A DNA stretch of 63,979 nt, filler included, from Stramenopiles sp. TOSAG23-2 (taxonomy: Eukaryota): the NCBI GenBank assembly GCA_900128395.1. It is 7 parts of 7 records of this genome, joined end to end, with 100 filler letters (N's around TTAATTAATTAA, not from the genome) between each part and the next. Parts side by side here need not be neighbours in the genome. Positions count along the whole stretch, not along the records: positions 27,699 to 36,810 come from LT650125.1; 6 more parts are not named here. One strand, given 5' to 3'. Position 1 is the stretch's first letter. Each line of letters begins with the position of its first letter. The translations under genes and the position numbers were made by a program. The notes under the pieces are model-generated. The model worked only from the letters and a program-made list of their open reading frames with translations. It was not told the DNA's origin and ran no database searches. Below, one piece after another: positions 3,001 through 35,612 of the stretch.

Positions 3001-6000
3001 TCGTACGTGTGCCATAATGGTAGAATTATGGATGCTTGATCATCTGGAAAATCTTCTATAAAGGGATGATGTGTGTCCCATAAATATCTTTTTACGACTA
3101 ACCAAGCCTCTTGCCGTTCAACACCCCGACCCGGTGCTGTAAACCCTCTTGATGTGCAAAAGTCAATCATTTTTTCTTTTGTATCAATTTCCGTCGCGAC
3201 GGTTGGATGAAACAATTTTACTCTCCAATAATGACCAGAATCTGTGGTTACGTCACAATATACATTGAATCCATTTATACTAATATCCTCATTTTTAGTT
3301 GCCTGTGCGCATGTTTGCAAGCGCTGGCAGTATTTTCCATAATATACTGCACCGTCTATTAACGTTTCTGTATCCGTTCCCGCGTTAGGGTTGAATTTTA
3401 ACCAATGCAAGCCATTTGCGTCAACGGCATCAAAGTTGTTTGTGTAGCAGCCACTTGGTCTAGTACTATCAGCAGATGGGAGAACTTGAATCCCCCAAGG
3501 TGCATGTGCACCATTATCCGGCGAATAATCTGATGAGTAAGTCAATTTGGAGGTATCCATACCCAATGCTACTGCAGCCTCCAGACATCTATTTGGGGAT
3601 TGAATATCCTCGTAACCGACTGTGTCTGAGCATTTTTGCCCTGCATTGGTGTTTAAAAATAGAAACTCTTGCCTTCCTCTTTCATCCCACCGCACTCCAT
3701 CTTTTCCGCTAGAAACAGGGCGTATGGAACCAGCAGGACAATTTTTACATTCTGTCATCCCATGTTCTTCTTGGTATTTACCAGATGCACACACGTAACA
3801 ATCTTTTTTTTCATTTGCAAAATCTTCCTCAACGTTGAGTACTCCATTCCATTTAACAAGGTCATTTGTATGAGACTGTCGTATTGTACCACTTGGACAG
3901 TCTTTACAATATGTCATTCCTTCCTCATCTTGGTATTTTCCGCTGTCACATACTATGCAATCTGTTGAATCGTCTGCAATAGCAATGAATTTATTTGTAT
4001 AAATCCAAAGTTCCACTTGGTTTTCCCCATCAGAAGTTGGCCCTAGAATTGGATATGAGCCGACCTCGTACGCACCAAGACAATAATACGAAGTACTGCT
4101 GTCACCAGGTGACCCATCTATCAAACAGTCATTAGTATTACCAGACAAGGCTAAGCCTGCCCAACCATTACCAGCGTAATCCTCATGGATAGCGCTGTAG
4201 CCAGTCACACTAGTAGATGTTGCAGGATTAGAGGTTTGTTTCCATTCATTGTAGCCAGTGTGAGTTGTGCTCATAGGCCATAAAATTTTCATATGATATG
4301 TCCCATCATCATTTTTGTAATCGTTTATGTTGCCCAAATTACTATAATCACTTTGAGTGGGATCATCTGGGTTTACAGATAATTGCCCATTGCCATATAA
4401 ATCATCCCATGGATTTTTATTCTCTAGCACTGTTTGACGAAATAATAATACCCATCTATAATTCCAATGTTGCTGATCTTGATTTTTATTTTGAACTCTT
4501 CTAGTCCCAGGTGGACATTGTTTACAAATGGTTTGCCCAATAACATTTTGATATTGACCAGAAGCACAACTTTGACAATCTCTTTCTTCATTTGCAACAC
4601 TGCGATAACCGTATGGTGAAGTTGTCGTGTAATGATCTGAGCATGGCGGGTCTGAACATGATGTATACATATCGTCTTGGCAACTTTCAGAACGTGTTCC
4701 TTTTAAATAATGCGCATTGATGCCAATATTACCATCCTTATCGTTCGCAGATGCGCAGCATCTGCTAAAGTTGTTGTTGGGGCTAAATACAAATGGAAAG
4801 TTGTGCGGACACCGGCTGTTATAAAGGTTGTTGTAAATAGGTGTATAAATTTCACCATATATTTCAATTTCGCATAATACAATCCAATCTTTGGATAAAA
4901 TTTGAACAAACTTACCAGTTGCTCCAGTGAAAAACAAACGTATTCCTGGATGGTCACTTGCGCTTTTCCAATATGCGGAAACATTCATAGCATGCGTCGT
5001 ATCAGTTTCATCCCCGTCATCACCTATTTTAATCATCCAACCTGATGATTGTTCGTAATGGCCAGGAACGCTTGGGTTATTTCTTCCGATCAAATAAATT
5101 TCTGTAATAATTTTGGTAGCAGTAAGTTCAATTTTTATCCAAGAATGTTTGTTTTGCGTATGTGCACATTTACCATTGGCTGCATTTTCATATACACCAT
5201 TATTATGATTGCCATCAATGGCTTTTGATGCATCACCGCTCCATTCAACCGAAGAGCTTGTAGCTTGAGGAGCGCATGAGCATGCATCACTTTGCCAAGT
5301 GCCACCAGGATTTGGGCATGATACTACGCCTAAATTTTCATATTTAGGGCTGTTTACCGTATATTTATTCACGCAATCAATATCAGTACTGCAGTCACTT
5401 GCACCGGTCAGGCAGCCATCATAGGAACCGTAACAATAAATTTTACTATCTTCTTCAAAACCAACACATATGTTATTCTTGCAATGGTGAGGACCAAAAC
5501 ATCTCTGCGACGTTGCTAGATTAAAACGATTGATACCATATCCATCCCATGGTTTCAGATCTGATTCTACTACTGCACGCATGGTACCGGCTGGGCAATC
5601 CTTGCATCCAGTTTGCATTTCTTCCGTTTGATATTTCCCTGATTCGCATACTAGGCAATCCGCTTTCGTAGCTGCGACCAATCGATCCCCAGTACCGCTC
5701 AGTGCTAGTTTTTCAAATGTAATCGGAAATCGATAATGTATTTTGCTAGAGGTTTTTTGAATGCAACTGTAAGCACTGTTAAAATAGCATTCGTTTGGGT
5801 TAATATTTTTGTTGTAATAATACGTATTGCTTGAATCTACGACGCAGCCAGACGGTCTGTCAACCCAATCATCAGAGCTACTAAATGTGTTACTAATGGC
5901 TTCGCATTCAGCTATTGAGACACTTAAATCTGGTACCCCTGATTGTTCGACGTAATACGTCCCAGTTGGTACAATATCGCCTCCCCAATAAGTAGTATTT

Positions 6001-9000
6001 AAATCTACAAAGCTCCCGCTCCAATATATGCTACTACCATCCATATTGGCACTATCGCATGATTTATACGTTTTGTAATTACCATTGTCCTGCAAGCTAA
6101 TGTAGTTACAATCACTATCAAGATCACATATCCCTTTAGTTAGTTCAAGCCAATCATGGAACTGATTGCTGAAGTAGGATGCAATAGCCACATCTGGGCT
6201 AAAAAGAACATTACCTGAATTTAATTCTTCAGCATGGCTATCGGAATGACAATTCCCAGTTGCGTAAAAATGATAAGCATGAACACCCACAGAAAATTCA
6301 TGGGAAAACATTTGGATCTCCGATATTTGAAGCTTCGAATCATCTGGCCCATTTAATTTCGTAAATTTAAATTTATAATGTACGTAAGAAACCACCGAAC
6401 CTATGCGGATTACATAAGATGCTTTTCTTCCTGGGAAGGCTGGTATGGTGTATTGACCTATAAAAGCCCATGTGCCATCTGCTGCTGGTTTCGATGAATC
6501 ACTAGATCCATATACTTCCATTTCTGTTGGATCTCTTTCTGGATAATTACTACCCGAGTACAGCCTTATTTTATTGCACGGATTTCCATTAGTTGTCAGA
6601 GTGAGACCACTATTTACTCCTCCGTTATTTACATATTGTTGATCAATGGAATTATCCATCGCGTTATGAGCTTCTTCCCCCGCATTGGACGCCCCACCGA
6701 AGGAGTCAATAGACCCAACAACAATGTGTGGCATTTGTTCCCTTCCATTAAAATAACCATTCAACCCATCCCAACGAGCACCATCATTGCCACTACTCAC
6801 CGTTCTACGCGTTCCAGATGGGCAGTTTATACAGGACATTTTTCCAATTTCATGTTGATACATGCCTGAAGGACACACTTTACAATCGGCTTTTTCATCT
6901 GCTACATTGCGATTGCCACTAGTCACTCCATCCCATGCTGTGCCATCATGGCCTTCTGAGGTATATCGCACCGTGCCCGCAGGACAATCCACACAAACGG
7001 TCCCTCTTTCATTATGTTGGTATTTTCCCGAAGGACAAACTGTACAAAATGAATATTCATCGGCAACATGCCTATCTCCTACACCATTGCCAGATACACC
7101 GCTGTCGTCACCATCCCAAAAATTATCATCATTTCCATAACTTATTTGACGCACTGTTCCAGCTGGACAATTTTTACATTCTAATTTACCAATTTCTTGT
7201 TGATACATACCTGATGGACATACTTTACAATCAGCTTTTGTATCTGCAACTAAGCGGTCACCGATACCTCTTCCAGTCCATCTATTGGAGTTTGTACTTA
7301 TCTGATCAAGGCCATTATTATTTAATACATGTAAACCACCAGACCATATCAAATCAGCTGTATCACCTTCAGATTTACCTAATGGATGTGTACCACTAAG
7401 TTGAATACATCGTACAGTTGTACTTGTAGTAAATGTTACTTTAAACCATGCTTCATCTACATAACATGGATCACAGCTTGGCTCCCAATATTGATTTGTA
7501 GTAGATAGTAATGCTGTTGCACAAGGTGTTGTACCACTTTTTGTTGTAGAGCAACTAATCATAGTACTTGTTAATACAATTTCATTAGAAACACTTGTTA
7601 ATGGTATTGAATCAGAACATGTATCATCTGTAAAAAATTGAACATTGTTTACTTTTGGTCTACCACCCATTTTATATACTATACTACCAGTCCAAGTATC
7701 TGTAGGTGTTACATCGCATAAAATACATGTATCAGTAGCATCATCAGGATGAAATGAAAAATATTTACAATTAGTATCTAATTTGCATTCATCAAGACAT
7801 GCATCAAATGACATTTTTCCACAAGTGTTTCCACTACCATCAACAGTACTACAGTCAGGTGGATTAGCAGTACCAGTAGCACATTTTTTATTTTGATCAG
7901 ATTCTACATAATATCCAGTTTGTCCAGCATTTTTGATTTCCCAAACTGTAGCTGTATATTGATCACCACTTAGTCCACTATCCCATCGTTTGCTATCTTC
8001 GTATTTATCGTAATACCGTATTGTACCTTCTGGACAATTTTTACATTCCATCAAGCCATCTTCTTCTTGGTATCGACCCGATGGACATACTTTGCAATCG
8101 GATTTTGTATTTGCAACTAAACGATCTCCTAACTCTCCACTCGTACCAGCTACGGGTAGAATTTTTTTATACGTAACTGGATACCAATATCCAACAATAC
8201 CATCCCATACAACATTTTGTTCATCTACTATGACATCAACTTCGTTATATACTTTGTTACTAAGGCCATTTTCAATACAAGTGTATGTTCCACCACAAGT
8301 AACACCAGTTGCTGCTTTATTGTAATAAATATTTGATGATCCATCTGTAAAACATCCTTTTGGATTATTAATATTTACATGATGATTACCCTGCCATGTT
8401 AAGCTATTATCAGTACCATATCGTTCACATTCAATTTCCGATACTGACATATCTGGTGGACTTGAATCTGTTTTCGTTACATATCCAGGTGTACATGCAT
8501 TTTTATATAGCCTATAATCACCATCATTCCATACACTTACATATTCACAATTTGAATCACTATTACATTTTGCTGTTGCTGTTAATACATATTGTTGAAA
8601 TGCATCACTAAAATACGAGCTTATTGGACCATTAATTGTGTGCGTTGATATTAAATTACCACCACTTTCTTCACAATGACCTATGGTAAATTCATGAAAT
8701 GTATCTAATACATTTGCACCATTCCATACATCATTATCCGATGTATCAACATATCGAACCGTACCTTCTGGACAATTTATACATTCTGTTTGTTTATTTT
8801 CATGCTGATATTGACCTGAATCACATACTTTACAATCTTCTTTTGTATCAGCTACATTACGATTACCACTTGAACTACCATCCCAATCGTGACCATCGGA
8901 TCCTGTAGTTGATGGTCGTCGTGTTCCAGCTGGACAATCAATACAATCAGTTTGTCTTTCATTATTTTGATATCTACCAGCTTCACATACTTTACAATCA

Positions 9001-9146
9001 GTTTCATCATCTGCTTTTGTACGGTCACCATCATTTCCACCACTATCACCATTCCAATGAATATCATCATCATTTGATGATATAGCACGTATGGTTCCAG
9101 CTGGACAATTTTTACATTCTAATTTACCAATTTCTTGTTGATACAT
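3..9146 (-). CDS. Giant (>3,040 aa, partial at both ends) cysteine-rich repeat protein (GCC2/GCC3 or ephrin-receptor-like CxxCxxGxYQ...CxxCPxGT repeats) with inserted LamG/ConA-like, fucolectin/F5-8C-like, fibrinogen-C-like and PAN/apple-like modules
   Basis: Manual translation from ATG 9146 gives MYQQEIGKLECKNCPAGTIRA...DCKVCEAGRYQ. The same frame is open at spot checks near 5600 (DCLVCESGKYQ...CKDCPAGT), 4450 (WVLLFRQT), 1130 (SKWIHVVITFEG...FNGNIAFLRIW) and 3-140. Its absence from the ORF track is consistent with no stop before the window edge. Confidence 0.85.
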   Translation of the reverse strand, partial: MYQQEIGKLECKNCPAGTIRAISSNDDDIHWNGDSGGNDGDRTKADDETDCKVCEAGRYQNNERQTDCIDCPAGTRRPSTTGSDGHDWDGSSSGNRNVADTKEDCKVCDSGQYQHENKQTECINCPEGTVRYVDTSDNDVWNGANVLDTFHEFTIGHCEESGGNLISTHTINGPISSYFSDAFQQYVLTATAKCNSDSNCEYVSVWNDGDYRLYKNACTPGYVTKTDSSPPDMSVSEIECERYGTDNSLTWQGNHHVNINNPKGCFTDGSSNIYYNKAATGVTCGGTYTCIENGLSNKVYNEVDVIVDEQNVVWDGIVGYWYPVTYKKILPVAGTSGELGDRLVANTKSDCKVCPSGRYQEEDGLMECKNCPEGTIRYYDKYEDSKRWDSGLSGDQYTATVWEIKNAGQTGYYVESDQNKKCATGTANPPDCSTVDGSGNTCGKMSFDACLDECKLDTNCKYFSFHPDDATDTCILCDVTPTDTWTGSIVYKMGGRPKVNNVQFFTDDTCSDSIPLTSVSNEIVLTSTMISCSTTKSGTTPCATALLSTTNQYWEPSCDPCYVDEAWFKVTFTTSTTVRCIQLSGTHPLGKSEGDTADLIWSGGLHVLNNNGLDQISTNSNRWTGRGIGDRLVADTKADCKVCPSGMYQQEIGKLECKNCPAGTVRQISYGNDDNFWDGDDSGVSGNGVGDRHVADEYSFCTVCPSGKYQHNERGTVCVDCPAGTVRYTSEGHDGTAWDGVTSGNRNVADEKADCKVCPSGMYQHEIGKMSCINCPSGTRRTVSSGNDGARWDGLNGYFNGREQMPHIVVGSIDSFGGASNAGEEAHNAMDNSIDQQYVNNGGVNSGLTLTTNGNPCNKIRLYSGSNYPERDPTEMEVYGSSDSSKPAADGTWAFIGQYTIPAFPGRKASYVIRIGSVVSYVHYKFKFTKLNGPDDSKLQISEIQMFSHEFSVGVHAYHFYATGNCHSDSHAEELNSGNVLFSPDVAIASYFSNQFHDWLELTKGICDLDSDCNYISLQDNGNYKTYKSCDSANMDGSSIYWSGSFVDLNTTYWGGDIVPTGTYYVEQSGVPDLSVSIAECEAISNTFSSSDDWVDRPSGCVVDSSNTYYYNKNINPNECYFNSAYSCIQKTSSKIHYRFPITFEKLALSGTGDRLVAATKADCLVCESGKYQTEEMQTGCKDCPAGTMRAVVESDLKPWDGYGINRFNLATSQRCFGPHHCKNNICVGFEEDSKIYCYGSYDGCLTGASDCSTDIDCVNKYTVNSPKYENLGVVSCPNPGGTWQSDACSCAPQATSSSVEWSGDASKAIDGNHNNGVYENAANGKCAHTQNKHSWIKIELTATKIITEIYLIGRNNPSVPGHYEQSSGWMIKIGDDGDETDTTHAMNVSAYWKSASDHPGIRLFFTGATGKFVQILSKDWIVLCEIEIYGEIYTPIYNNLYNSRCPHNFPFVFSPNNNFSRCCASANDKDGNIGINAHYLKGTRSESCQDDMYTSCSDPPCSDHYTTTSPYGYRSVANEERDCQSCASGQYQNVIGQTICKQCPPGTRRVQNKNQDQQHWNYRWVLLFRQTVLENKNPWDDLYGNGQLSVNPDDPTQSDYSNLGNINDYKNDDGTYHMKILWPMSTTHTGYNEWKQTSNPATSTSVTGYSAIHEDYAGNGWAGLALSGNTNDCLIDGSPGDSSTSYYCLGAYEVGSYPILGPTSDGENQVELWIYTNKFIAIADDSTDCIVCDSGKYQDEEGMTYCKDCPSGTIRQSHTNDLVKWNGVLNVEEDFANEKKDCYVCASGKYQEEHGMTECKNCPAGSIRPVSSGKDGVRWDERGRQEFLFLNTNAGQKCSDTVGYEDIQSPNRCLEAAVALGMDTSKLTYSSDYSPDNGAHAPWGIQVLPSADSTRPSGCYTNNFDAVDANGLHWLKFNPNAGTDTETLIDGAVYYGKYCQRLQTCAQATKNEDISINGFNVYCDVTTDSGHYWRVKLFHPTVATEIDTKEKMIDFCTSRGFTAPGRGVERQEAWLVVKRYLWDTHHPFIEDFPDDQASIILPLWHTYDSSGPINKLESLYLDKSVTLPSNPKGGHCDETNPGQIWCGYWNKNGWEVDDDTYGDPEDFAIGNFRDSTQTYPTYYACMQEDIMLDVNADGASDLDSNLDVSNERADCNVCNSGRYQDEMGEMVCKACPAGTFREIVVGSNGDNSKWVAPWVNNFIADSIADCIICNSGKYQDIPGGTSCKDCEIGRYRHYHYTDGENYNGENGFTGLTADALNDCTICSKGKYMDYTGATECVVCDQGLHLDNDATIVADHVSKTNCLVCNSGKYSYDFHNLAGPFHIRFWRDTLSNNQMYDLSIAEVYAYQNDARIKPQTSSSANLIDQNENSVWTSGYGSTTVQPHATVTYNNMPTKIEVIIRKDSYHHWSHGAKVSVSQNLDGSNALYVNTFGIDSKDVGSRGNVPKIPDHEWEFRRISSATSWTVLDEYDAAIQATSHGSDITALTYESGATFDGSDVYVDVSDWTWGGKMSIETYVKCNDISSKFSVFSFDEGTSKKSTLNFGNDPNAPYVGNTDSTAHLNVFGGNDYHVHKHTTCAGSGAGNENIVKDFFGTIEMCKKKCSSIPDCVGFFQIVEDPNNVETEFDVGECVFQADTLAIDSTATPTRACYERILKEVNVRTDSFWETSKWIHVVITFEGSSIKIYKDKNLFKHLEIGVLPFLTQRTNHHIGRADTTYFNGNIAFLRIWHKTCLNADEISRLFDVRHEKIITYNFHISSNRCDGCLKGRYRAQDPHADGMSYDASNGITGVITDAFNDCQVCPDGQYQNEEGKQACKLCFAGKYQPKRIGWIPILQTDTGTYNINTKGVNDIHLDGRPKYSGFAKLSDEAINNIEHENNPSFYYYKLSTSRISINVGTSPSATSKTIQLMAKGIVCPSTVDKTNWLGSSTASDVFSISISDFVLTVTRGTAWTLDLTIVCDGPETDTLVKTASTVSYNDTVEGYNLHVTDEYESCNLDSIDECETYGGFNPNWFCVNMPIRNQESCFDMAHYDEQNKAWMSDGSRE

Positions 9147-19691: not shown

Positions 19692-22600
19692 ATGACTGAT
19701 TTCATACGTGGGAAACCACAAAAACGTAAATCCATGTTTGATGGATTATCTGATCAAGTAGATTTAGCTGCACCACCAAAAGAAGGAAATGATTTTTTGT
19801 TTTCTATGCGTAATACAAAACGTTCAAGGCATACAAAGTTTGATGACGATAATCAAGGCACTGCAAATAAAAAAACATTGAAAAAAAAAGAAGCGAAGAA
19901 ACGAAAAAAAGAACGTGAAAGACAAGAATTATTAGAAGCACAAACGCAAAAGGCCTTTGGTAGTGCTCCAAGTAGCTTAATAGTTCCAAGACATATACAA
20001 TTATTATCATTTTCACGCCTAAGTGTTGGTGTAAAGTTATTAGCAATTGTCAGGCAAGTAAATACTAGAAACGCGGTTTTAAGTTTGCCAAATAGTTTAA
20101 CTGGTCATCTTGACTTAAGAGACGTGTCTGATTATATCAGTAAACTATCACCAGCAAATTTAAAGGAAGCAGCATATGATATGAAAAAAATGTTCACACC
20201 AGGTCAATTTGTTCTATGCGCAATTTCTAGTTTAGATAAATCTGACCGTAAGCGTATTGAGGTGACAACGAAAGGATCTACATTAAATGAAGGCTTGCGT
20301 TTGCAAGATTTAGGTGAAGATCTTGTCTCTCAAATTAATGGTCATGTAAACAGTATTGAAGATCATGGATATGTTATATCATTAGGAGTCAAATCTGTCA
20401 CTGCGTTTTTGCCTTTTACCAACATTTCATCATCAACAAATAGCAATAATAATAATAATAATAATAATAATAGTAAAAAGAAAAAGAAGAAAAAAAGGGC
20501 AGATGATGATAATAATTACGATCATACTGATGAAAACAATCAATTTATCATAGGACAAGCATTGACAGTAGCTGTAAAAAGCGTCAATGTAAAAGCAAGG
20601 TCAATTATTTGCCAATTGACGAACTGCACCAAAAGGAACCCTTCATCTTTTCCTACCAAACATATTGTGAACAAAGCTAGTATTGGTATGCAATCATTAA
20701 CACCAGGTATGTTGGTAAAAGCCACTGTGAAAAAAGTACTTAAATCAGGCTTATACTGTACATTTCTTACCTACTTTGGTGCATCTGTTGATGTATATCA
20801 TATGAAAAAACCAGCATCAAGTGGTTGGGTTGAACGAAATGTATATTCAGCCGGTGATACGATGGTAGCTAGAATTATTATGGTTGATAATGTTAGTAAA
20901 ACAGCATCGTTAAGTGCAGCCCCTCATGTAGTTAGTTTAAAAGCAAAACAATTTTCTTGCAACAGAGGGGACGTTTTTAACCGCGCAATTATCGCACGTG
21001 TTGATAAAGGAACGGGATTGTTGTTAAATTGTACTGATTATGCTGGTAATTCTAGCATTAAAAATGATTCCGACGATGACTCTGGTGATGATTCTGACGT
21101 TGAAATGGTCGATGAAGACAAGAAAAAAATTACTGAAGTAGCGTATACACATATATCACGAGTATCAGATAGTCGTACTGAAAATTTAGCAAAATATCGA
21201 GATAAAATTGTTAAATGTCGTATCATAGGGTTTTCCGAATTTGATGGTATGGCATTGGCATCATTGAAAGAATCTATTTTAACTGCAAAAGTACTTTCAA
21301 TAAACGATGTTAAACCTGGTGTCCGAATCACGGGTCGAATAGAAAAAGTTGATGAAAAGGCTGTCGTATGCTCTATAGGTGAAAATGTGCGTGGAATTAT
21401 CCTTCCATCACACTTAGCAGAAGTCAAACTTCAAAAATTTGATGATAAATTTAAAGTTGGTGGGCAAGTCAGTTGCCGAGTACTTCAAATAGATACAAAG
21501 CGAAAGAGGGTTTTGTTAACATGTAAAAGAATTTTGGTTACATCACCAAATGAAATTATCTCAAATTACTCTGAAGATTATGTTGGGACATTGGCACACG
21601 GTTTTGTGACTGCTATAAAAGAATATGGAGTCGTTGTCACTTTTTATAATAATGTACATGGATTAGTTTCAATAGAAGATATGGAACGCCATGGTATTCA
21701 TGAACCTGCATTAGCTTATAATCTTGGGCAATCTGTTCTTTGTAAAGTATTGTCTGTCCAAGTAGGAAATGGACGCATGCGTTTATCATTTCATACGAAG
21801 GAAGATGAGAGTGGGAAAGCAGGAGCAAAAGTTTTACCAACGAAATATACAGTTGGAAAAGTTTTAAAATCAGTTAAAATCGATGAAATTCGTGCCGATA
21901 GTGGTGAAATTATTTTGCAATTTTCGGATAATATCACTGGAATTTTGAATAAAGTTCATTTGTCCGATCATAAAGAAAATTGTGATAGCCTGTTTAATAT
22001 GTATTCTGTTGGTGATAAGTTGAAAGACTTGGTTGTTTTAGAAGCGCGCAAAATATTTCAACGAGATGGATTGCCTGGATGGAAAGTTATGTTAAGTAAG
22101 AAACCTGCGATATTAAGATCATTGTTGGAAGGTTTGTTGCCTTCAAAAGATGATGAAATGGTAGTTGATCGTCTCTTGTGCGGTTATGTACATAATACAA
22201 CTGCATTTGGGATTTTTGTACGTTTCCTTGGCAGGGCAACAGTTTATATCCCAAAATCAAATATATCTGAAAGTTTTGTGGAAAATACAAGCGATTTTTT
22301 CTCAGCAGGGCAAACCGTATGGACCAAAATTATACGTTCCGTACAAGCTCCCGGTGAAAGTGCAATTGGAACGCTAAAACCTCTACTTTGCAATCCATGG
22401 TCGTTATCAACTGACTATCACAGTATGTTTTTAGTGAGTTATCTTATCGAAATAGGTAACATCGCCAAGCATCAAAGTGATGAAGATGATAATGATACGT
22501 TGAAATCTATAGATTGGGAATCCTACCCTATTGGTTCAATCGTTGAAGCGGAGGTTATTGAAAATAAAAAAGAAGGTGTTTTACTAAGCATTGATGATAC

Positions 22601-25600
22601 GGGTGCATGGTGTCAACGTGCACATGCAACAAAAGCTAAATATAAGAAAGGCTCTGTTGTGAAATGTATGATCCTAGATGTAGATATGAAAAATGTAAGT
22701 CAATACACACACACATACACACACACACACACGCATATATATATATAGATACATAAATATATATATATATAGATACATAAATGTCAAAAAGAGAAAAGAA
22801 AAAAGCTGAAAAAATGACGACGAAAACACTATTTCCAAGAGCACTGGGATATGATTTATTATATGATTTTAAACATTGTCACTACTTCTGATTTTCAAGC
22901 ATCTATTTTTTTTAATGTTGGCAATACATACAGTTACTCCCTCAAAAATACTAAATTTTTCATGATATACAATTGCTTTTTACTAACATAAACTTATTAT
23001 TTATTATTGTAGAATATATTACATGTGACACTTGATTCAAAATCAATTACCGTGAGGAATAAAAAAACAACAAAACGATTTAAATTAGATCAAGAATTAG
23101 ATGCAACAGTATTATTAGTCAAAGAGAAATATTATGTTGTTGAATTGCCAAATAGTGCCCACAAGAATACCATTGGCTTTCTTGCAAAAGAAACTTATAA
23201 TGGAAATTACATAGCTGGCGATGAATTGGAACAAGGTGATAGTGTTGAAGTTAATGTATCAGTTACTGCTCGAGCAAATAATAAGCAATATCCTGGTCGT
23301 ACTACTTTATTGGTATTTCCTAGCGACGTAAATGAAAAAAGTGATGATGGCAACAGCAACAGTAAAAAATTGAAAAAAAAGAAGGAAATTGTACATAGAG
23401 GTGCCTTGCTTGATTGCGTTGTAAGAGACATAAAGAAAGATGCGATTGATGTAGAAATGAAGATTATTGAATCTGAACAAAAACGATTTAAAGCATCTAT
23501 TTTTTTAACAGACATTGTTGATTTAAATGATACTACTTCTGGAAACGAAAATGTTTTAATTAAAATGCGGTCATTTGAAGTTGGGTCCGAGATCCAAGCA
23601 AGGTGCTTATGGACAAATAGCGATAAATCAAAGGAAAATAAAACAGCCGTAAATGATGACGATGATGCAAAAGAGATTGTTGCACAACTAAGTTTAAGGG
23701 ATTCTGAAGTAAGTTCAGCAACTTCTGAAATAGAGAAACGCTTATCATGGAGAGATGCTGAAAATCTTGAGCATGTGAAAGATCTTTATGGTGTCGTCTT
23801 GGATATTGTTAAAGATGGTGCATGGATTGCAATTTCACCTATTTTAAAAGGTTTTGTTTATTGCACGAATTGTTCGTATGATGATGACATTGAAACACTA
23901 AATGAAGATGGTGTAAAAGGTGTTTTGCAAGTTGGGCAAATTGTTCCTGCGTGTGTTTTAAATGTAGATGAAGCAAACCATTCGCTAGAACTTAGTCTTC
24001 GCAAGATTGATATTGAAAATCCAGGTAAAATTGGAGGATATAAACGTAGAGTTGGGGATATCTTAATTGGTAGAACAATTTCAATTAAAAAAGGAGGGAA
24101 AGTTAAAGTGAATCAACCACCTGCAATCAATATCCAAGTTTCAAAAGGTGCCTATGGACGTGTATGTATTACACATCTAAAAGACAAACAGAACTGGGTT
24201 GATGTGCCATTTGGAAGAAAAAGTGGGAAAAAGGAAAAATTAGGAATGAGTAGCCTCTTGCCGGGAAAGTTTGTACGATCAGTTGTCGTGAAGAACGAGA
24301 ATGACCATTTAGATTTATCCATGCGAGGAACTATTCTTGCATTAGCAGCAAAGAAAACATATTCTACAGACACTAAATGGTTAACAAGTATGCTTACGGA
24401 AGATGATTCAATTGCAAATTTTGAAGCTGGGAACGTAGTCAAAGGTTACGTTGTTGAGACTGTCAAAGTTGGCTGCTTCATACGCCTTTCACCATCCGTG
24501 ATTGCGCGTGTTATGATAACAAATTTATCCGATTCATTTATTAAACATACTGATAAAGTCTTTTATCCAACAAAATTGGTAACAGGTAAAATTCTGACTA
24601 TCGATAGCAATACTGGTAGAGTCGAATTGTCCTTGAAAAATTCTGTCGTAAAAGAAGTTAAGAACAAAAGCTTAAATGATAGTATGGTTAATTTCAAAAA
24701 CGTGGAAGTTGGACAAGTTTTAGAAGGAACTGTTAGTAAAGTCGAATCATATGGAGTATTTATAAAGTTATTAAAAAGTGGAAATCCTGGTATAAGTGGC
24801 ATGTGTCATATATCAGAAGCAACTGATAAATATGTTAAAAACTTAAGCAAATTATTTAAAGCTGGGGATTTAGTTAAAACCAAAGTGATCAAAATTGATC
24901 GTAAGGAGAAAAAAATCTCATTAAGTTTGAAAGCATCAAACTTTAAAGATAGCAATGGAAATAAAAAAAAGAAAGATTTAAATAAAACGTTTGATAGTAG
25001 TAGTGATGAAGACAGTGGCAGTGATGATGGTGATGAAGATGTCGAAATGAATGGTAGTGGTTCAACAAAAGTAGGAAAAGTGAAATTATTAGGCGGTAGT
25101 AGTTCGTCGGAAGAAGATTCTGACGAGGATTCAGATGATGAAGCAGAACAATCTAAAAAAACTGTTGTGTCAAACAAGAGAATAGGTTCCGCAGACTATA
25201 TCTCTTCATCTAGTGATGAAGAAGAAGAATCCTCTTCTAGTGAGGACGACGAGGATGACAGCGATGATGATGACAGTACTGAAAAATCTAAGCCTATGTT
25301 TTCGTTTAAAGGCTTCGATCGCTTTACTAAAGCTGCTGACGATGACAGTGATAGTAGTAGTGATTCGGATGAAGATAGTTCTGATTCTGATGATGAGATG
25401 AATGGTGGCAAGAAGAAAAAATCAAGATCTCGTTCATCAAGGAAGAAAGCACGTGAAAGGCGTAGAGAAGAAGCTGCAATCGTTGCTGAAGAGGAAGCCT
25501 TGTTGCAAGGTAATTCTGTACCAACTTCTGTTAATGATTTTGAAAGAATGATTCTCTCATCACCAAATAGCTCGTTTGTCTGGATTAAATATATGGCATT

Positions 25601-26360
25601 CCAACTTTCTATGACTGAAATTGATTTAGCAAGAGCAATTGCAGAACGTGCACTAAAGCAAATTAATTATCGTGAAATAGAAGAAAAGTTAAATGTATGG
25701 ATGGCATATTTAAATTTAGAATATAAATATGGCAATGATAAAACATTTGAAGATTTGTTCAAAAGGGCCCTTGAGGTGAATGATGCTATCGTTATTCATC
25801 TCCGTATGGCAAATATATTTTATGAAGCAAACGACGAAGAAAAGGCAAATGAAATATATAAGCGAGCCATTAAAAAATATGGAAGCAAATCTGTTGCAAT
25901 TTGGACTGATTATGGTTTGTTTGCAATTAAGACTAATAGTAGACACGTACCATATAAAAATGTCCTTTCCCAAGCATTACAACGACTTCCATCGCGTGAA
26001 AGTGTTGCCTTAATTTCAAAATTCGCAATCATGGAGTTTAAATATGGAACACCTGAAAGAGGAAGGACTATATTTGAGGAAATATTAGCAAATTACCCAA
26101 AACGAGTTGATATCTGGAACATGTATCTTGATCAAGAAACCTCTATTTTCGCACAAAATTTTGACAGCATGTCACCAGCAGAGAAGAAAAAAGTAAATCG
26201 TGTCCAAAGATTGTTTAATCGTGTCATATCATTGAAATTTTCAAGTAAAAAAATGAAGTTTTTCTTCAAAAAATATTTACAATTTGAACAAAATCATGGA
26301 ACAAGTAATGGTGAGGAGCAAGTTAAAAAATTAGCAAGAGAATGGGTACAGTCTCAATAA
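19692..26360 (+). CDS. RRP5: rRNA biogenesis protein RRP5 (S1 repeats plus C-terminal HAT/TPR), two exons 19692-22694 and 23013-26360, ~2116 aa
   Basis: Many S1 domains, then PNSSFVWIKYMAF / EKLNVWMAYLNLE / PERGRTIFE / YPKRVDIW. The two ORF-track halves join in phase 0 across a GTAAGT...TACTAAC...TAG intron. Confidence 0.95.
22695..23012 (+). other. 318-nt U2-type spliceosomal intron of RRP5
   Basis: Donor GTAAGT at 22695, branch TACTAAC at 22981, acceptor TAG at 23010-23012. Splicing gives ...DVDMKN|NILHVTLD in frame. Confidence 0.92.
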
Positions 26361-29515: not shown

Positions 29516-29875
29516 GATATTTTTGAGATTAAATTTTCACATCAATATCGCGTTCCTAATGCTATTGCCTAGGTAGAGGATGCGAGATGCGAATTTTGCC
29601 ATCCGAACAACTTCATATAGGAGATATCATGGGTTTATGTACAATATACTCTTACACTAAAGTTATTATTGTAGATTTAGATTCCTCGCTAATCGCTTAG
29701 TATACTGTTGTAGCGGATTCGGATCCTTCTTTAGTGTAAGAGTATATTGTACATAAACCCATGATCTCTCCTATATGAAGTTGTTCGGATGGCAAAATTC
29801 GCATCTCGCATCCTTTACCAAGGCAATAGCATTAGGAACGCGATATTGATGTGTAAATTTAATCTCAAAAATATC
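29516..29875. repeat. Large inverted repeat: 147-bp arms (29516-29662 and 29729-29875), 66-bp spacer, 4 mismatches
   Basis: Direct base-by-base comparison of the arms. A weaker outer extension pairs AAGTGAGGGTCAAAAAAATGAT with ATCATTTTTGTGACCTACACTT. Confidence 0.97.
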
Positions 29876-30102: not shown

Positions 30103-32853
30103 ATGAATAAAAATCTTATAATTCTTATCACAATCATTGGTGTTATATGCCAATTTGGAGGCGAAGAAGTAAACGCTTTCAGTGTTACACGCAAAAATGT
30201 AACTCTAAAATTACGCGCCGTTGAAAGAACTCCGCTAGCACCAGTAAGTGATGTTGCATGCAACATCAGTGACCATGGAAAAGCCAAAGCGTTGGTCACT
30301 GTTAAACACAAAGCGTTATCGCCAGATATCTGTAGCGATATTGTCCTATCGAAGGGGAACGCAGTGCCTGGGTGTTGGAGCTATGTTGGATTGAGCGCTG
30401 AGCAATATTTGTATTGGAATTCTATTATGGGTATAAATGACCCTGATGTTGGCATAGTGGTTGATAGTATCAGTTTTGAATTCCTTCATCAATACTTAAC
30501 TTTTATGAAGGTCTGCATAGTTGGAGTTCTTCAAATATTTGTTGAACTGGCGTATCTTTTATATACAAGTTTCAAAATGCTCTGCATTATAGCTGGTTTG
30601 CATTACCTTGCAGAATTTTCGTTAAAGAAAAGGGAAAATAAAAATTTAAAGTCGTTGGTAAGATCTGTCGGAGTAAATACAATGACATGTGAAATGGTAC
30701 AGATTCATGACATTGAATCTCTATGTGCAAGCGACCAAACAATCACTAACGAAGAAAAAATGGGTTTCTTTGAAAAAGCAGCAAATGAAATGCCTAGATC
30801 TGTGAGGCACGACTTGGAATTAAATCCACAATTCGCACAATGTGTTGACAGCCATGGTTGGAGTGCATTGCATTATTGTGCAGCGTTCAATAATAAGCGC
30901 AATTTGGATACAATGAAAGTATTACTGGAATATATACCACCGGAGGAGATTAATCGTAAGACTACTGCAATATTGAGTCATGGTGAAACAGCAGTAGATG
31001 TAGCCTATCGGCTCAACAAGAGTAATATGCGTAATTCTATTATTAAATTATTACGTTGGAAAGGCGGGAAAGCAAATTGGCGCGATGAAAAGGGCAATAA
31101 TGTTGGTTTGTTTGGCACAGGTGAGCTTGGAAAATCCATGAAAACGGAACGCGGAAAATACGAGAATGAACATGGTTTGCAGATTTTTATACGAAGAGGG
31201 TCTGGAAAATCAAAGAGGATTGATGCAGCACCCACCGATATGGTACGCGATATAAAGGCTAAATATACTGCCGCAACAGATGCGCTTGGTAAACCAATAT
31301 TTCCAGTAACGGCCCAAAATGTGGAAGATAACACTGATAAATATACTGGTACTAATGATGGTAGTACGTCAATATTAACGGCAAAAACCGTAACTGTGGA
31401 AGACAATAAGGCGTGTTCAACTCCATCAGTTTCAGCCGTACCAATATCCGCAATCCGGTTATCATACAACGGCAAAGAATTGGATGATAATCGCACACTT
31501 AGTGATTACAACATCCAAAATTATTCAACACTGGAAGCAAGTTTTGGTGGTTTGAATGGTGGTATGAGCGTAACAAGAGCAGCATCAACAACTGTTGGTG
31601 CACTTTGTAGTAGTATTACTACGTTCTTGGAAGTAAATGCAAATTTTCTCTGGTCAAGTGCACCTAGTGTCCTTGCGTTCGTGGCCTCACCAGCAGGAAT
31701 GGTGATTATCCTGGCCCTTGTAACAGGTTCATGGTCTGGTTACATAATAGGAGTGCACCTTGATAACCTCATAGGTTACAACTGCCCATTGTTGATAAAG
31801 GTATTTATTGGTATATTAGGTGGTTTGATATGTGGCTTATCGAGCTCAATCATTTACGCCAATTACTTTTTCGGCATGGTGGTAGAAGCTACAAAATGGG
31901 GCGCTCTGAAATTTTGGTTTCATGCCATTTTCATCTATACAAGAAACAAGACTAACCAGGAGCCAGGCTCAGCCCCAAACAAGGCTTTAACTAAAGTTAC
32001 TGAAGCAGAAGTTGAGGGAATACTCCAGGATACATTTGTTGCGCAGGAAGGCGCCAAGAAGAAATTACGAGAAATTATAGCAGCTCCTTTTTTGGATAAA
32101 CTCCGGGGAAGTGGTACAGGAGGGTGTAAAACGTTCAAGCACTATGTCTTCCAAGGACCGCCAGGTACTGGAAAGACATCATTTGCTAAATTTCTTTGTG
32201 AAATTTTGTGGTCATTTGACTGCTTGGAATCCAACAGATTTCGGATAGTCAACCGAGAGAACCTAGTGGGAACACACGTTGGACATACAGAGGATATTAC
32301 AGGAAAAGTCCTTGACAGCGTTAGAGGTGGGGCACTTATAGTCGATGAAGCCCATAAACTGACCGATGTTGGTGGAATGGGAATTGATTTTGGCAGAATT
32401 GCACTAAGTGTCTTAATGAACGCCATGACACTGAATCAGTGCACAATAATTTTGGTAGGATATACTACTGAAATGCAGCGTTTGCTAAACGCTGATGATG
32501 GGTTGAAGCGCCGCATTAACAACATCATCACGTTTATCAATTACTCAGTTGAAGAACTTGTTGAAATTTTCCTCGTGAAAATCAAAACAATGAGAATCAA
32601 TGGTCATAGTTATAATCTTGGTTTCAACTCTCACGTGTTGAATCGCCATATTGAAAAAACTAGCGAAGTAGTACGTAACCTTTTCAATGGAGGTTTAGCA
32701 ACCAAAGTTTTGAAAAATGCTGTTTCAAAACTAAACATACGACTGAAAGAGGAGTTTAGTGACTCCATGCCCAGTCGTGAACAATTGCACACTATCACAG
32801 AAGATGATATTGGTGCTGCGTTCCAAGATCTTCGCACTCAGTATGAAAGGTAG
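30103..32853 (+). CDS. Multidomain protein: signal peptide, TM, ankyrin, ubiquitin-like (ending LNGG), multi-TM, SpoVK/CbxX(CfxQ)-type AAA+ ATPase
   Basis: GWSALHYCAA/GETAVDVA ankyrin; LQIFIRR...RLSYNGKELDDNRTLSDYNIQ...LNGG ubiquitin-like; [46 protein letters not shown] and YSVEELVEIF AAA motifs. Confidence 0.88.
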   Translation: MNKNLIILITIIGVICQFGGEEVNAFSVTRKNVTLKLRAVERTPLAPVSDVACNISDHGKAKALVTVKHKALSPDICSDIVLSKGNAVPGCWSYVGLSAEQYLYWNSIMGINDPDVGIVVDSISFEFLHQYLTFMKVCIVGVLQIFVELAYLLYTSFKMLCIIAGLHYLAEFSLKKRENKNLKSLVRSVGVNTMTCEMVQIHDIESLCASDQTITNEEKMGFFEKAANEMPRSVRHDLELNPQFAQCVDSHGWSALHYCAAFNNKRNLDTMKVLLEYIPPEEINRKTTAILSHGETAVDVAYRLNKSNMRNSIIKLLRWKGGKANWRDEKGNNVGLFGTGELGKSMKTERGKYENEHGLQIFIRRGSGKSKRIDAAPTDMVRDIKAKYTAATDALGKPIFPVTAQNVEDNTDKYTGTNDGSTSILTAKTVTVEDNKACSTPSVSAVPISAIRLSYNGKELDDNRTLSDYNIQNYSTLEASFGGLNGGMSVTRAASTTVGALCSSITTFLEVNANFLWSSAPSVLAFVASPAGMVIILALVTGSWSGYIIGVHLDNLIGYNCPLLIKVFIGILGGLICGLSSSIIYANYFFGMVVEATKWGALKFWFHAIFIYTRNKTNQEPGSAPNKALTKVTEAEVEGILQDTFVAQEGAKKKLREIIAAPFLDKLRGSGTGGCKTFKHYVFQGPPGTGKTSFAKFLCEILWSFDCLESNRFRIVNRENLVGTHVGHTEDITGKVLDSVRGGALIVDEAHKLTDVGGMGIDFGRIALSVLMNAMTLNQCTIILVGYTTEMQRLLNADDGLKRRINNIITFINYSVEELVEIFLVKIKTMRINGHSYNLGFNSHVLNRHIEKTSEVVRNLFNGGLATKVLKNAVSKLNIRLKEEFSDSMPSREQLHTITEDDIGAAFQDLRTQYER

Positions 32854-33484: not shown

Positions 33485-33704
33485 GTGTATTATATATAAT
33501 ATTATATTTTAAAAAATAAATTTTTTACGAAGTACCTAGAAAAATAGTGTAACACAAATAAAATATTACACGTACATCAGTACATCATACAAACTTTCAA
33601 AAATATTATTTTTAATATGATCATAATATAATTTTGAAATTATTTAATCATATATTATTCTCCATAAATTTTTAAATCCTCTGTATTTCTTTTTTCTTTT
33701 TTTT

Positions 33705-33967
33705 AAATTTTACGCATAATTTATTTTTAATTTACTCATGATAATTCCTACTCTTCAAAAGAATAAAATAACTGAAATAATCTATCTCACACAAGTGTGT
33801 TGATATTCTCATAATCGAAAATACCAATGAAGGTATAAATTTTACGCATAATTTATTTTTAATTTACTCATGATAATTCCTACTCTTCAAAAGAATAAAA
33901 TAACTGAAATAATCTATCTCACACTAATGTGTTGATATTCTTACAATCGAGAACACCAATGAAGGTA
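33705..33967. repeat. Diverged tandem duplication, 132-bp unit x2
   Basis: TACGCATAATTTATTTTT occurs at 33711 and 33843. The 3' thirds differ by several substitutions. Confidence 0.88.
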
Positions 33968-34187
33968 AATAGATGGTATCAACTACTCATAATAGCTATT
34001 TTTTTTTTTTTTTACCTTTCTTTTTTTTACGAGGCATATCTGCATGTAAGGTACCTCTTGTTTTTTCTAGCCTTTCTCCTTTGTCCTTATCTTTATTAAA
34101 AAGTGTTTGCTTAGATTGGCCTAACATCATCCTTGTTGTCTCTTGAATACCATTTGTATCAAAAATTTGCTGTTTCACCTTCATTTT

Positions 34188-35612
34188 TTAAATTTTTTTT
34201 GTGGCTTTGAAGAAGTTGTGGCTTTGAAGAAGTTTATCTAGGTATGCTTCTTCTGCTTCTATCCAAGAAGCACCCATAGAATTATTATTTTCCGTTGATT
34301 CTGTCTTTGCAATTTTTCGTATTGATTTACTTTGCTTCTCATATTCATTTTTACGTATTTCTGAATCTTGTCTATGATTTTCATCAACACCGTACTCTGT
34401 ATCCGTCCATATACTATGATATAGCCCATCTTTTATTGGTTTATCTACTACCCCAACAAATAATTTTGCACGTGTAATAGCACGATATATAGATGCTTTA
34501 ATTTTGTCAAGTACAAGCTCGTCAATGTTAATAATATCTATTTCTTTATCAAAACCCACAACAATTGCTGCATCGTATTCTAAACCATCTTGATTCGAAA
34601 TTGTATCAACAACTAGTTGTACTGATGTATGTTTTAATTGTGGAAACATACCAAACATTGTTTCTGCATTTACAATCTTAAAACTGTGACGATAGTCTCT
34701 TTCATTTAAAATGCTGCCTATCTTTTCAGAAAATTGATCAATTTGCAAATTTTTACTATCATCAGGCAAAATAATCACAACACGACCATCACTTAAACCA
34801 TTCCATCCACCATCATAATTGTCGCCAGAGTTTTTAAAATGAATTAATGCATCAACCGTTTTCAAAGCATACTGTGTAATATCATCTATAGACGGTTTAA
34901 AAAAGATTCTGTTATATATAAAATCGAGAAACGAAATACTACTACTACTACTACTATCATCTATACCATTATCTTCATCAGAATTGATAATCAAAAATGG
35001 TTTAATGGGACTTCCAAATTTCTTCTTTTTGCATGCTGGTTTATCATCATTTTTTCTGAATAAATGAGATCCCAAGGCAATTACTTGTGTTGAACGCACT
35101 ACATCACGAAGTTCAATTAGAAAAACTTCTTCATCACTTTTCAATGCATCGTTTATTGCATTATTAATCTTTTGTATTGCAGATGGTCCTTGATTATCAT
35201 CAGAAAGTATTACACGTTGTTTTGCATCTTCAAAATGCCTTAATATTCGTCTCCATGTCTTATCATTTGCGTCTTCAAAATACTGTAATATTCGTCTCCA
35301 TGTCTTATCATTTTCACGAACAATATGATGCGCTTCATCAATTACGACTAAATCATAGTTATGGATGGTTTCATCAATAGGTACAAATTTTAAATATACA
35401 TTCCTCTGATCGTCGATTTGAAGTGTTGCTTTTTGTGGATGATCTCCTGTCTTTCTTGTACAAAAATGTATACGATTTAAAATCGATTCTGGATCATGTT
35501 GTATTTGAGGTGTGTCATTATTATTATCATTCTCTTCTCCTTTGGTCTCACCACTTAATAAACCTTGTATTTTTTTTACTCTTACATTTAATTTTTCAAT
35601 AATGATATCCAA
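34188..35612 (-). CDS. SF1 (UvrD/Schlafen-DUF2075-like) helicase C-terminal part lacking Walker A, possibly a pseudogene or chimera
   Basis: [11 protein letters not shown] (motif II), ILSDDNQ (III), LRDVVRST (IV), [18 protein letters not shown] (V), IYRAITRAK (VI). No GxxGxGKT upstream. Internal 45-bp duplication [15 protein letters not shown] x2. Confidence 0.7.

Follow-up and report, generated by a model that had tools for sequence, protein, structure and literature searches.

An internal ubiquitin-derived domain with a candidate LxGG processing site precedes a predicted membrane hairpin and an AAA+ module of the SpoVK/CbbX/EccA clade in a marine stramenopile

Ubiquitin joined in frame to other proteins is known from protists. 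Bigelowiella natans and Guillardia theta have it fused to unrelated partners, integral membrane proteins included, and protist fusions carry the unit N-terminally, C-terminally or internally, at times as partial or split units, at loci where automated gene models easily err (PMC6332867; this and the other papers below are cited from excerpts). Ubiquitin-like (UBL) domains can also be removed from their precursors, that of SDE2 (<20% identity to ubiquitin) by USP5 (PMC13572447) and that of FUBI-eS30 by USP36 (PMC8354635), and TMUB1 and TMUB2 are endoplasmic reticulum (ER) membrane UBL proteins of ER-associated degradation (ERAD) complexes with a functional link to p97 (PMC7482433). Here we compare with these systems a gene from Stramenopiles sp. 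TOSAG23-2, a single open reading frame (ORF) of 916 codons and a stop that encodes, in order, a variable N-terminal head with a hydrophobic anchor, ankyrin-like repeats, a ubiquitin-derived domain ending in LNGG, a predicted membrane hairpin and an AAA+ module. The stretch of DNA analysed, hereafter the window, is 63,979 nt long and consists of seven record parts joined end to end, which need not be neighbours in the genome; the ORF, at 30103-32853, lies within the part from LT650125.1 (27,699 to 36,810). Our search of the literature for this architecture returned no paper that describes it, and the supplements of PMC6332867 may list more partners. A first-pass annotation, made from the DNA alone, had remarked that the domain order looks novel; it is indeed new to the collections we searched, but non-canonical and internal ubiquitin fusions of protists were known (PMC6332867, in the part cited), and we conclude that the gene is a real and unusual, rare lineage-restricted variant of these fusions.

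The ubiquitin-derived domain has a beta-grasp fold in two halves, separated by an insert of about 54 residues. Only the C-terminal half (residues 445-478) matches PF00240 above the cut-off (37.5 vs 25.4 bits, E 2e-9), whereas alignment by phmmer to polyubiquitin chains in the PDB recovers both, residues 357-388 corresponding to the preceding GG and then M1 to I30, and residues 445-487 (up to 490) to G35 through G76 plus the Met of the next repeat. By manual count the identity to ubiquitin is 10/30 in the N-terminal and 22/42 in the C-terminal half, the unbroken R54-Q62 stretch included. Similar to the last residues of a polyubiquitin repeat, Ub L73, G75 and G76 are kept as L484, G486 and G487, and the following Met is kept as well: G487 ends at 31563 and M488 occupies 31564-31566, the DNA reading GGT GGT ATG and the protein GG/MSVTR. 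A domain ending in LNGG at 31563 with Met next had been proposed in the first-pass annotation, and on this the reading of the ORF and the phmmer alignment agree. The AlphaFold2 (AF2) model of residues 350-495, built on an alignment of three rows, has a mean predicted local distance difference test (pLDDT) score of 53.8, which is low because of the disordered insert (391-444, pLDDT <50); its ordered parts score 62-91, and since the alignment has only three rows our confidence in the beta-grasp model is moderate. The elements modelled are beta1 (360-365), beta2 (370-374), a helix (381-389), beta3 (451-455), a short helix (466-469) and beta5 (475-481), followed by a disordered tail (483-495). With this model Foldseek returned ubiquitin-type chains only, at least 455 of them at E<=1e-3, with a TM-score on the target of 0.89 and a root-mean-square deviation of 2.0 against 1ubq; among the matches is 2gbr, a ubiquitin engineered to carry an insertion at 35-36. 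Metatranscriptome contigs of ubiquitin from other organisms align at 31474-31520 with 85-90% nucleotide likeness, and therefore this part is still near ubiquitin at the DNA level. Contigs less than 90% alike there were rejected as ubiquitin transcripts of other organisms.

In the collections searched, the sole other sequence with this architecture is an ORF of 907 residues at 2567-5290 of a JGI contig, which recurs identically (907/907) in a Logan assembly. From residue 213 onwards it is about 90% identical to our protein and 92.3% identical in nucleotides, and its 3' flank is homologous too (81-93%). The first-pass annotation had turned on whether the GG is conserved in homologues, and in this one relative it is: LDGG/MSATR stands there where the window reads LNGG/MSVTR, the x of LxGG being the only variable residue of that motif. 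Between the two, the ratio of non-synonymous to synonymous change (dN/dS, by the Nei-Gojobori method) is 0.29 over residues 213-916 overall, 0.23 in the ankyrin-like part, 0.12 and 0.17 in the N- and C-terminal halves of the ubiquitin unit and 0.21 in the AAA+ module, with 0.81 in the hairpin region (7 synonymous and 19 non-synonymous changes) and a near-neutral 1.17 in the insert (4 and 14). As judged from this comparison, purifying selection acts in frame before as well as after the junction. Upstream, the homology ends sharply at window 30739 in blastn: residues 1-212 are barely alignable with the head of the relative (contig positions 2567-3172), and both heads begin with a signal-like segment, which suggests that the N-terminal module has been swapped, by recombination or as part of a cassette family.

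Segments were counted as of transmembrane (TM) grade where the Kyte-Doolittle hydropathy reached at least 1.6 in windows of 19 residues, and the whole protein has four such segments, at 5-23, 135-153, 523-541 and 561-579. The first is the signal-like start of the head, which also has N-x-S/T sequons at N32 and N54 and 8 Cys. The second is the one TM-grade peak of the anchor; a second helix there is possible, the number of helices being ambiguous in the relative as well, and the flank behind this anchor holds 6 Lys or Arg (K/R) in 20 residues. The other two form the predicted hairpin, with the same two peaks in the relative, a loop of 19 residues that has no K/R, and 4 K/R in the flank after its second helix. 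About three hydrophobic segments had been suggested downstream of the GG; the third stretch, at 596-612, peaks at only about 0.6, which leaves two. Together, hydropathy and K/R counts fit a UBL flanked by membrane segments, and from the two-helix hairpin we infer that the UBL and the AAA+ module lie on one side of the membrane. That side would be the cytosol, given the ATP requirement of an AAA+ module and the cytosolic type of ankyrin and ubiquitin folds. Of the earlier question whether the UBL is cytosolic or luminal, then, the hairpin bears out that the UBL shares the side of the AAA+ module, the step to the cytosol being the presumptive part. The stretch of about 30 residues between the GG and the hairpin contains one Arg, and its first acidic residue is at position 23; if exposed by a cut, this stretch would look like an organelle-targeting peptide.

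The AAA+ module is matched by Pfam AAA at 682-808 (E 2.6e-11, 44.6 bits vs a cut-off of 21.2), with AAA_lid_6 (PF17866) at 845-903 below threshold (19.9 vs 24.3 bits). Among NCBIfam models it scores E 6.1e-35 with SpoVK (TIGR02881), 8.5e-34 with EccA (TIGR03922) and 8.3e-28 with CbbX (TIGR02880), at bit scores far from the equivalog cut-offs (120.5 vs 422.95, 117 vs 466.65 and 97.4 vs 459.25, respectively). The best solved chains are likewise EccA1 (1.5e-23) and CbbX (~3e-21) (PDB 9lur, 3zuh, 3syk). A 916-codon open frame at ~40% GC with such E-values is far beyond chance. The ankyrin-like repeats stay below the Pfam cut-offs (Ank_2, PF12796, 18.1 vs 27.3 bits, E 0.004; Ank, PF00023, 17.6 vs 21.1 bits), and the match of the relative is similar (E 0.0016).

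Searches with parts of the protein point to the same narrow distribution. Of 7999 proteins scored in a word-based search with residues 1-500, three reached E<=1e-3, namely the gene's own model, the relative and a polyubiquitin-like protein, and searches with residues 488-916, at near and at shorter lengths, gave 14 and 11 matches whose coverage, the gene itself and the relative aside, is confined to the AAA+ part (at most 63%). Exhaustive HMMER searching gave 17021 matches at E<=1e-3, the best 150 of which are dominated by tandem multi-AAA proteins; among these 150 only the relative matches beyond the AAA+ part, and since the best 150 of 17021 were examined, distant single-AAA relatives with a UBL may be hidden among the others. 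Scanning metagenome DNA with residues 488-686 returned two loci, the JGI contig of the relative, which is genuine, and a bacterial ligase contig, a false positive. In a FastTree of 205 rows, mostly unnamed and without bootstrap, the AAA+ module sits on a long isolated branch, and no viral rows fall in the smallest supported sets around the window sequence, a placement to be read with the usual caution about long branches. Neighbours in the ESM Atlas were AAA clusters of Nucleocytoviricota at a borderline 0.90. A giant-virus origin, with the nucleocytoplasmic large DNA viruses raised earlier as a source of the AAA domain, was rejected: no close viral locus was found, and none of 46 viral AAA loci (best-segment identities 24-65%, the highest over very short matches) had a match to the UBL, the hairpin or the N-terminal part, so that neither the viral locus searches nor FastTree gave a sign of it. 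The gene is lineage-restricted and comes from an AT-rich marine protist.

How might such a protein work? The reading we lean towards, without giving it quite an even chance, is that the protein is cut after G487 and that the UBL acts as an LxGG hinge. A single transcribed gene would then give a multi-pass membrane protein with its ankyrin repeats, UBL and AAA+ module all facing the cytosol, in which the ubiquitin unit, its recognition surfaces lost, would serve as a built-in hinge. A deubiquitinase or UBL protease would cut behind it, similar to what happens in ubiquitin-ribosomal protein, FUBI-eS30 and SDE2 precursors, and the products would arise 1:1, an ankyrin-UBL piece anchored in the membrane and an AAA+ ATPase that is anchored by the hairpin and starts at a defined Met/Ser N-terminus. 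The released ATPase may assemble as a ring at the membrane and remodel or extract a client, and the released UBL end would in our view probably stay unconjugated. In favour of a cut, the junction copies the boundary of a polyubiquitin repeat (GG-M), L-x-G-G survives amid the decay of R72, R74 and four surface residues, the tail and the linker of about 30 residues are predicted to be flexible, and both flanks of the junction would lie in the cytosol. A cut is also in keeping with the known processing of divergent UBLs by deubiquitinases and with the membrane-protein fusions of ubiquitin in protists. For several viral papain-like proteases, moreover, LxGG is the minimal site.

Several observations weigh against this reading. 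The ubiquitin unit lies inside the protein instead of at its N-terminus, and Ub L8, I44, H68, V70, R72 and R74 have become G366, S454, E478, S480, G483 and N485, so that the Ile44 patch is lost along with both tail arginines, and in SDE2 the cleavage required an Arg near the tail (PMC13572447). The GG/M is known from two distinct sequences only, at 92% nucleotide identity, and because they are so close its conservation is weak evidence. The topology comes from hydropathy alone, the full-length AF2 model (two rows, pLDDT 30.9) being unusable, and the RNA support described below amounts to few short contigs, with DNA carry-over possible. As to the motor, the first-pass annotation had spoken of an intact AAA+ domain. 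Walker A, Walker B and Arg finger do stand, but His725 occupies the pore-loop position that is Tyr in CbbX and EccA1, and E855 aligns with the arginine of the GN[AG]R lid motif, which is present in 7/8 other rows; for these two reasons its activity is uncertain. Among relatives the pore-loop residue is Y in 250, F in 36 and H in 26 of 340 motif instances (158/172 proteins), and His725 can therefore be seen as a recurrent minority state rather than an obvious defect.

Nearly as likely as a cleaved hinge is that the protein stays whole. In that case it would be an integral UBL membrane protein of the kind of TMUB1/2, whose cytosolic UBL, set between membrane anchors, docks partners for the fused AAA+ motor in a self-contained unit for membrane extraction or remodelling, and GG-Met would be a relic of the ubiquitin once captured. 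The loss of the surfaces that general deubiquitinases use speaks for this, as does the closeness of the two sequences, too great for the GG to prove selection. Set against it is the survival of L73, G75, G76 and Met while six recognition or tail residues decayed, and also the loss of the docking patch itself, given that integral UBLs normally dock through an Ile44-type patch; Herp is a further membrane UBL protein akin to TMUB1/2.

The seemingly swapped head permits a more elaborate version of the cleaved hinge, which we consider unlikely: a two-in-one cassette, in which a conserved ankyrin-UBL-hinge-hairpin-AAA+ body would carry interchangeable N-terminal ecto/TM heads, and a dedicated LxGG protease would produce a head-specific receptor and a motor at 1:1. 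As part of the same proposal, either the exposed Ser/Thr/Ala-rich N-terminus would direct the motor, or the GG end of the receptor would be attached to a target.

A further alternative concerns the anatomy of the UBL and leaves the GG/M junction unchanged. Could the insert be an unspliced in-frame intron, from GT at 31289 to AG at 31435 (147 nt), such that the mature UBL is nearly the size of ubiquitin? GGTAAAC and TTTCAG do lie at in-frame distances, removal would leave a loop only 3 residues longer than that of ubiquitin, and the dN/dS of the insert is about 1.2. The organism's template for an intron is that of the RRP5 gene (19692-26360), which is split by an intron of ~318 nt (window 22695-23012) with GTAAGT, a TACTAAC box near the 3' end, TAG, (CA)n and (TA)n microsatellites and a GC of 0.258. 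The candidate stretch has no TACTAAC box at a comparable place and a GC of 0.381, and both variants keep an open frame across it, a 6-nt in-frame indel notwithstanding. RNA evidence comes from short metatranscriptome contigs of four runs, with a patchy coverage of 7-8 of 30 bins per run in which gaps say nothing either way. One of these, at 31223-31471 (249 nt, 4 mismatches), crosses the insert without a gap, another run is collinear over 30114-30505, and splice joints, sought in the RNA-library contigs of the four runs, were found in none. Taken together these data make the intron improbable.

Very improbable in our view is a use of the free GG for conjugation, as the first-pass annotation had it, where after the cut the SP-TM-ankyrin-Ub product would itself become a modifier. 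The GG does stand at the exact place of Ub 75-76, and equivalents of K48, K11, K27 and K29 of ubiquitin are retained. However, the equivalent of R72, on which E1 depends, is Gly, that of R74 is Asn in the window and Asp in the relative, and the L8/I44/H68/V70 patch reads G/S/E/S; the claim of a conjugatable end is weakened accordingly, and our literature search yielded no precedent for a membrane-anchored modifier.

Least credible is that two products arise with no proteolysis at all, either because M488 has a promoter or start of its own within the ORF or because two genes were joined in assembly or annotation. Although the Met directly follows GG and the public gene models of the two variants (876 and 804 aa) disagree at their 5' ends, two independent loci show an unbroken frame, as does a third assembly, which has the second variant; the junction region has coding-like GC with no stop and no AT-rich spacer, and a contig from an oligo-dT RNA library (31471-31621, 151 nt, 0 mismatches) bridges GG/M with 93 and 58 nt on its sides. 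Given the continuous ORF, the dN/dS of 0.29 over residues 213-916 and this last contig, we treat the locus as one gene, as the first-pass annotation had done.

Table 1. Positions of the features discussed, in window coordinates
Feature	Residues	Window position	Strand	Basis
Whole ORF		30103..32853	+	916 codons + stop; 907-aa relative of same layout
Variable N-terminal module	1-212	30103..30738	+	Hydropathy, sequons; blastn homology begins 30739
Hydrophobic anchor	127-170	30481..30612	+	Kyte-Doolittle
Ankyrin-like repeats	245-307	30835..31023	+	Sub-threshold Pfam
Ubiquitin-derived beta-grasp domain	357-487	31171..31563	+	Pfam, phmmer, AF2 model
Insert of ~54 residues between Ub positions 34 and 35	391-444	31273..31434	+	Predicted disordered
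Candidate LxGG processing site, L484-N485-G486-G487 then M488	484-488	31552..31566	+	Sequence, alignment
Linker after GG	488-518	31564..31656	+	1 K/R, 1 D/E; Ser/Thr/Ala-rich
Predicted membrane hairpin, two TM-grade helices		31657..31857	+	Kyte-Doolittle peaks 523-541, 561-579
SpoVK/CbbX/EccA-clade AAA+ module	641-916	32023..32850	+	Pfam, NCBIfam, solved chains
Walker A GPPGTGKT	685-692	32155..32178	+	Aligns to EccA1/CbbX chains
Pore-loop-1 position LVGTHVGHT	721-729	32263..32289	+	Alignment
Walker B ALIVDEAH (IVDEA 746-750)	744-751	32332..32355	+	Aligns to EccA1/CbbX chains
Arg-finger motif GLKRRI	800-805	32500..32517	+	Aligns to EccA1/CbbX chains and relatives

The window is an AT-rich, intron-poor eukaryotic nuclear locus, with a GC of ~30% across it and ~40% in coding parts, and its other genes encode FtsH, RRP5, eIF2A, a GH10 hydrolase, a P450 and an ephrin-receptor-like repeat protein; tRNA genes were searched for in the window and none found. 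Among public proteins the only identical one is that of a EukProt gene model of 876 aa, which at 30148-30245 uses an internal ATG in a different frame and cuts out 76 nt from GT to AG. These 76 nt have a coding-like GC of 0.42 and a sequencing contig runs collinearly across them, and the start of the model is probably mispredicted; for the relative, the JGI model likewise falls short at the N-terminus (804 vs 907 aa). Upstream, about 230 bp before the ATG, lies a palindromic element of 360 bp (window 29516-29875) that occurs once in the window, with arms of 147 nt each, 97% complementary at a spacing of 66 nt, and it may be an insertion similar to a miniature inverted-repeat transposable element (MITE) or a hairpin-forming promoter element. 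Downstream, the 3' intergenic region has a tandem duplication of ~130 nt (33702-33971), to which a single segment of the relative's contig aligns twice, at 33710-33832 and at 33841-33971. Next comes a 474-aa ORF on the minus strand (34188-35612) that has no Pfam match at 1e-5; its sequence includes a VVIDEAHH motif like that of helicases, and a segment of ~15 residues is tandemly duplicated within it. At the other end of the window an open-ended ORF of >3048 aa (3-9146, minus strand), in which laminin-G and F5/8 type C domains accompany many Cys repeats of ephrin-receptor-like and TNFR-like kinds, encodes a giant extracellular or adhesion-type protein.

What the gene means depends on the fate of the junction. 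If the LxGG is cut, a cellular ubiquitin unit would have been kept only as an internal self-processing hinge in a membrane protein, which would extend the list of ubiquitin-fusion partners and show which features of ubiquitin may decay while processing persists. It would also release a membrane-anchored AAA+ motor from a clade (SpoVK, EccA and the Rubisco activase CbbX) known mainly as soluble enzymes. If it is not cut, we would have a TMUB-like membrane UBL protein with a motor of its own, still an undescribed layout; and should the cassette hold, the cell would be using a ubiquitin-derived hinge for a modular receptor-motor system. The reach of these ideas is narrow for now, since the gene has turned up in only two near-identical sequences, both from marine protists that are uncultured or obscure.

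Set beside the systems with which we began, the gene is most similar to the protist fusions, having an in-frame ubiquitin unit that is internal and split, a predicted membrane partner and models that are probably misannotated; among the partners tabulated in PMC6332867, as excerpted, there is no TM hairpin with a SpoVK-like AAA+ module, and this ubiquitin is strongly diverged, has its insert of ~54 residues and stands downstream of an ankyrin and membrane module. With FUBI-eS30 and SDE2 it shares a divergent UBL that ends in GG directly before a functional partner, although in the accounts cited here those UBLs are N-terminal, their partners soluble and their cleavage proven, while here the tail arginines are absent and cleavage is predicted. 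The likeness proposed to TMUB1/TMUB2 is one of layout: a UBL predicted to lie, as theirs does, on the cytosolic side between N- and C-proximal TM segments, and a link to an AAA+ motor, which in those proteins, as described in the excerpts, is not fused, nor are they reported to be cleaved, and the UBL here comes from ubiquitin proper. As in SpoVK, CbbX and EccA, the module has Walker A, Walker B, Arg finger and the N-terminal helix of the clade, with an apparent lid of the same kind, and it differs from them in its N-terminal hairpin membrane anchor, sub-equivalog scores, pore-loop His and lid Glu. A last parallel is found in the polyproteins of pestiviruses, where inserted cellular ubiquitin is cut by host enzymes and NS3 is released. 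Similar to these, the stramenopile protein would carry an internal cis cleavage module in a membrane-associated precursor; but there a virus has recently captured an unaltered ubiquitin, and here a cellular gene holds a decayed one.

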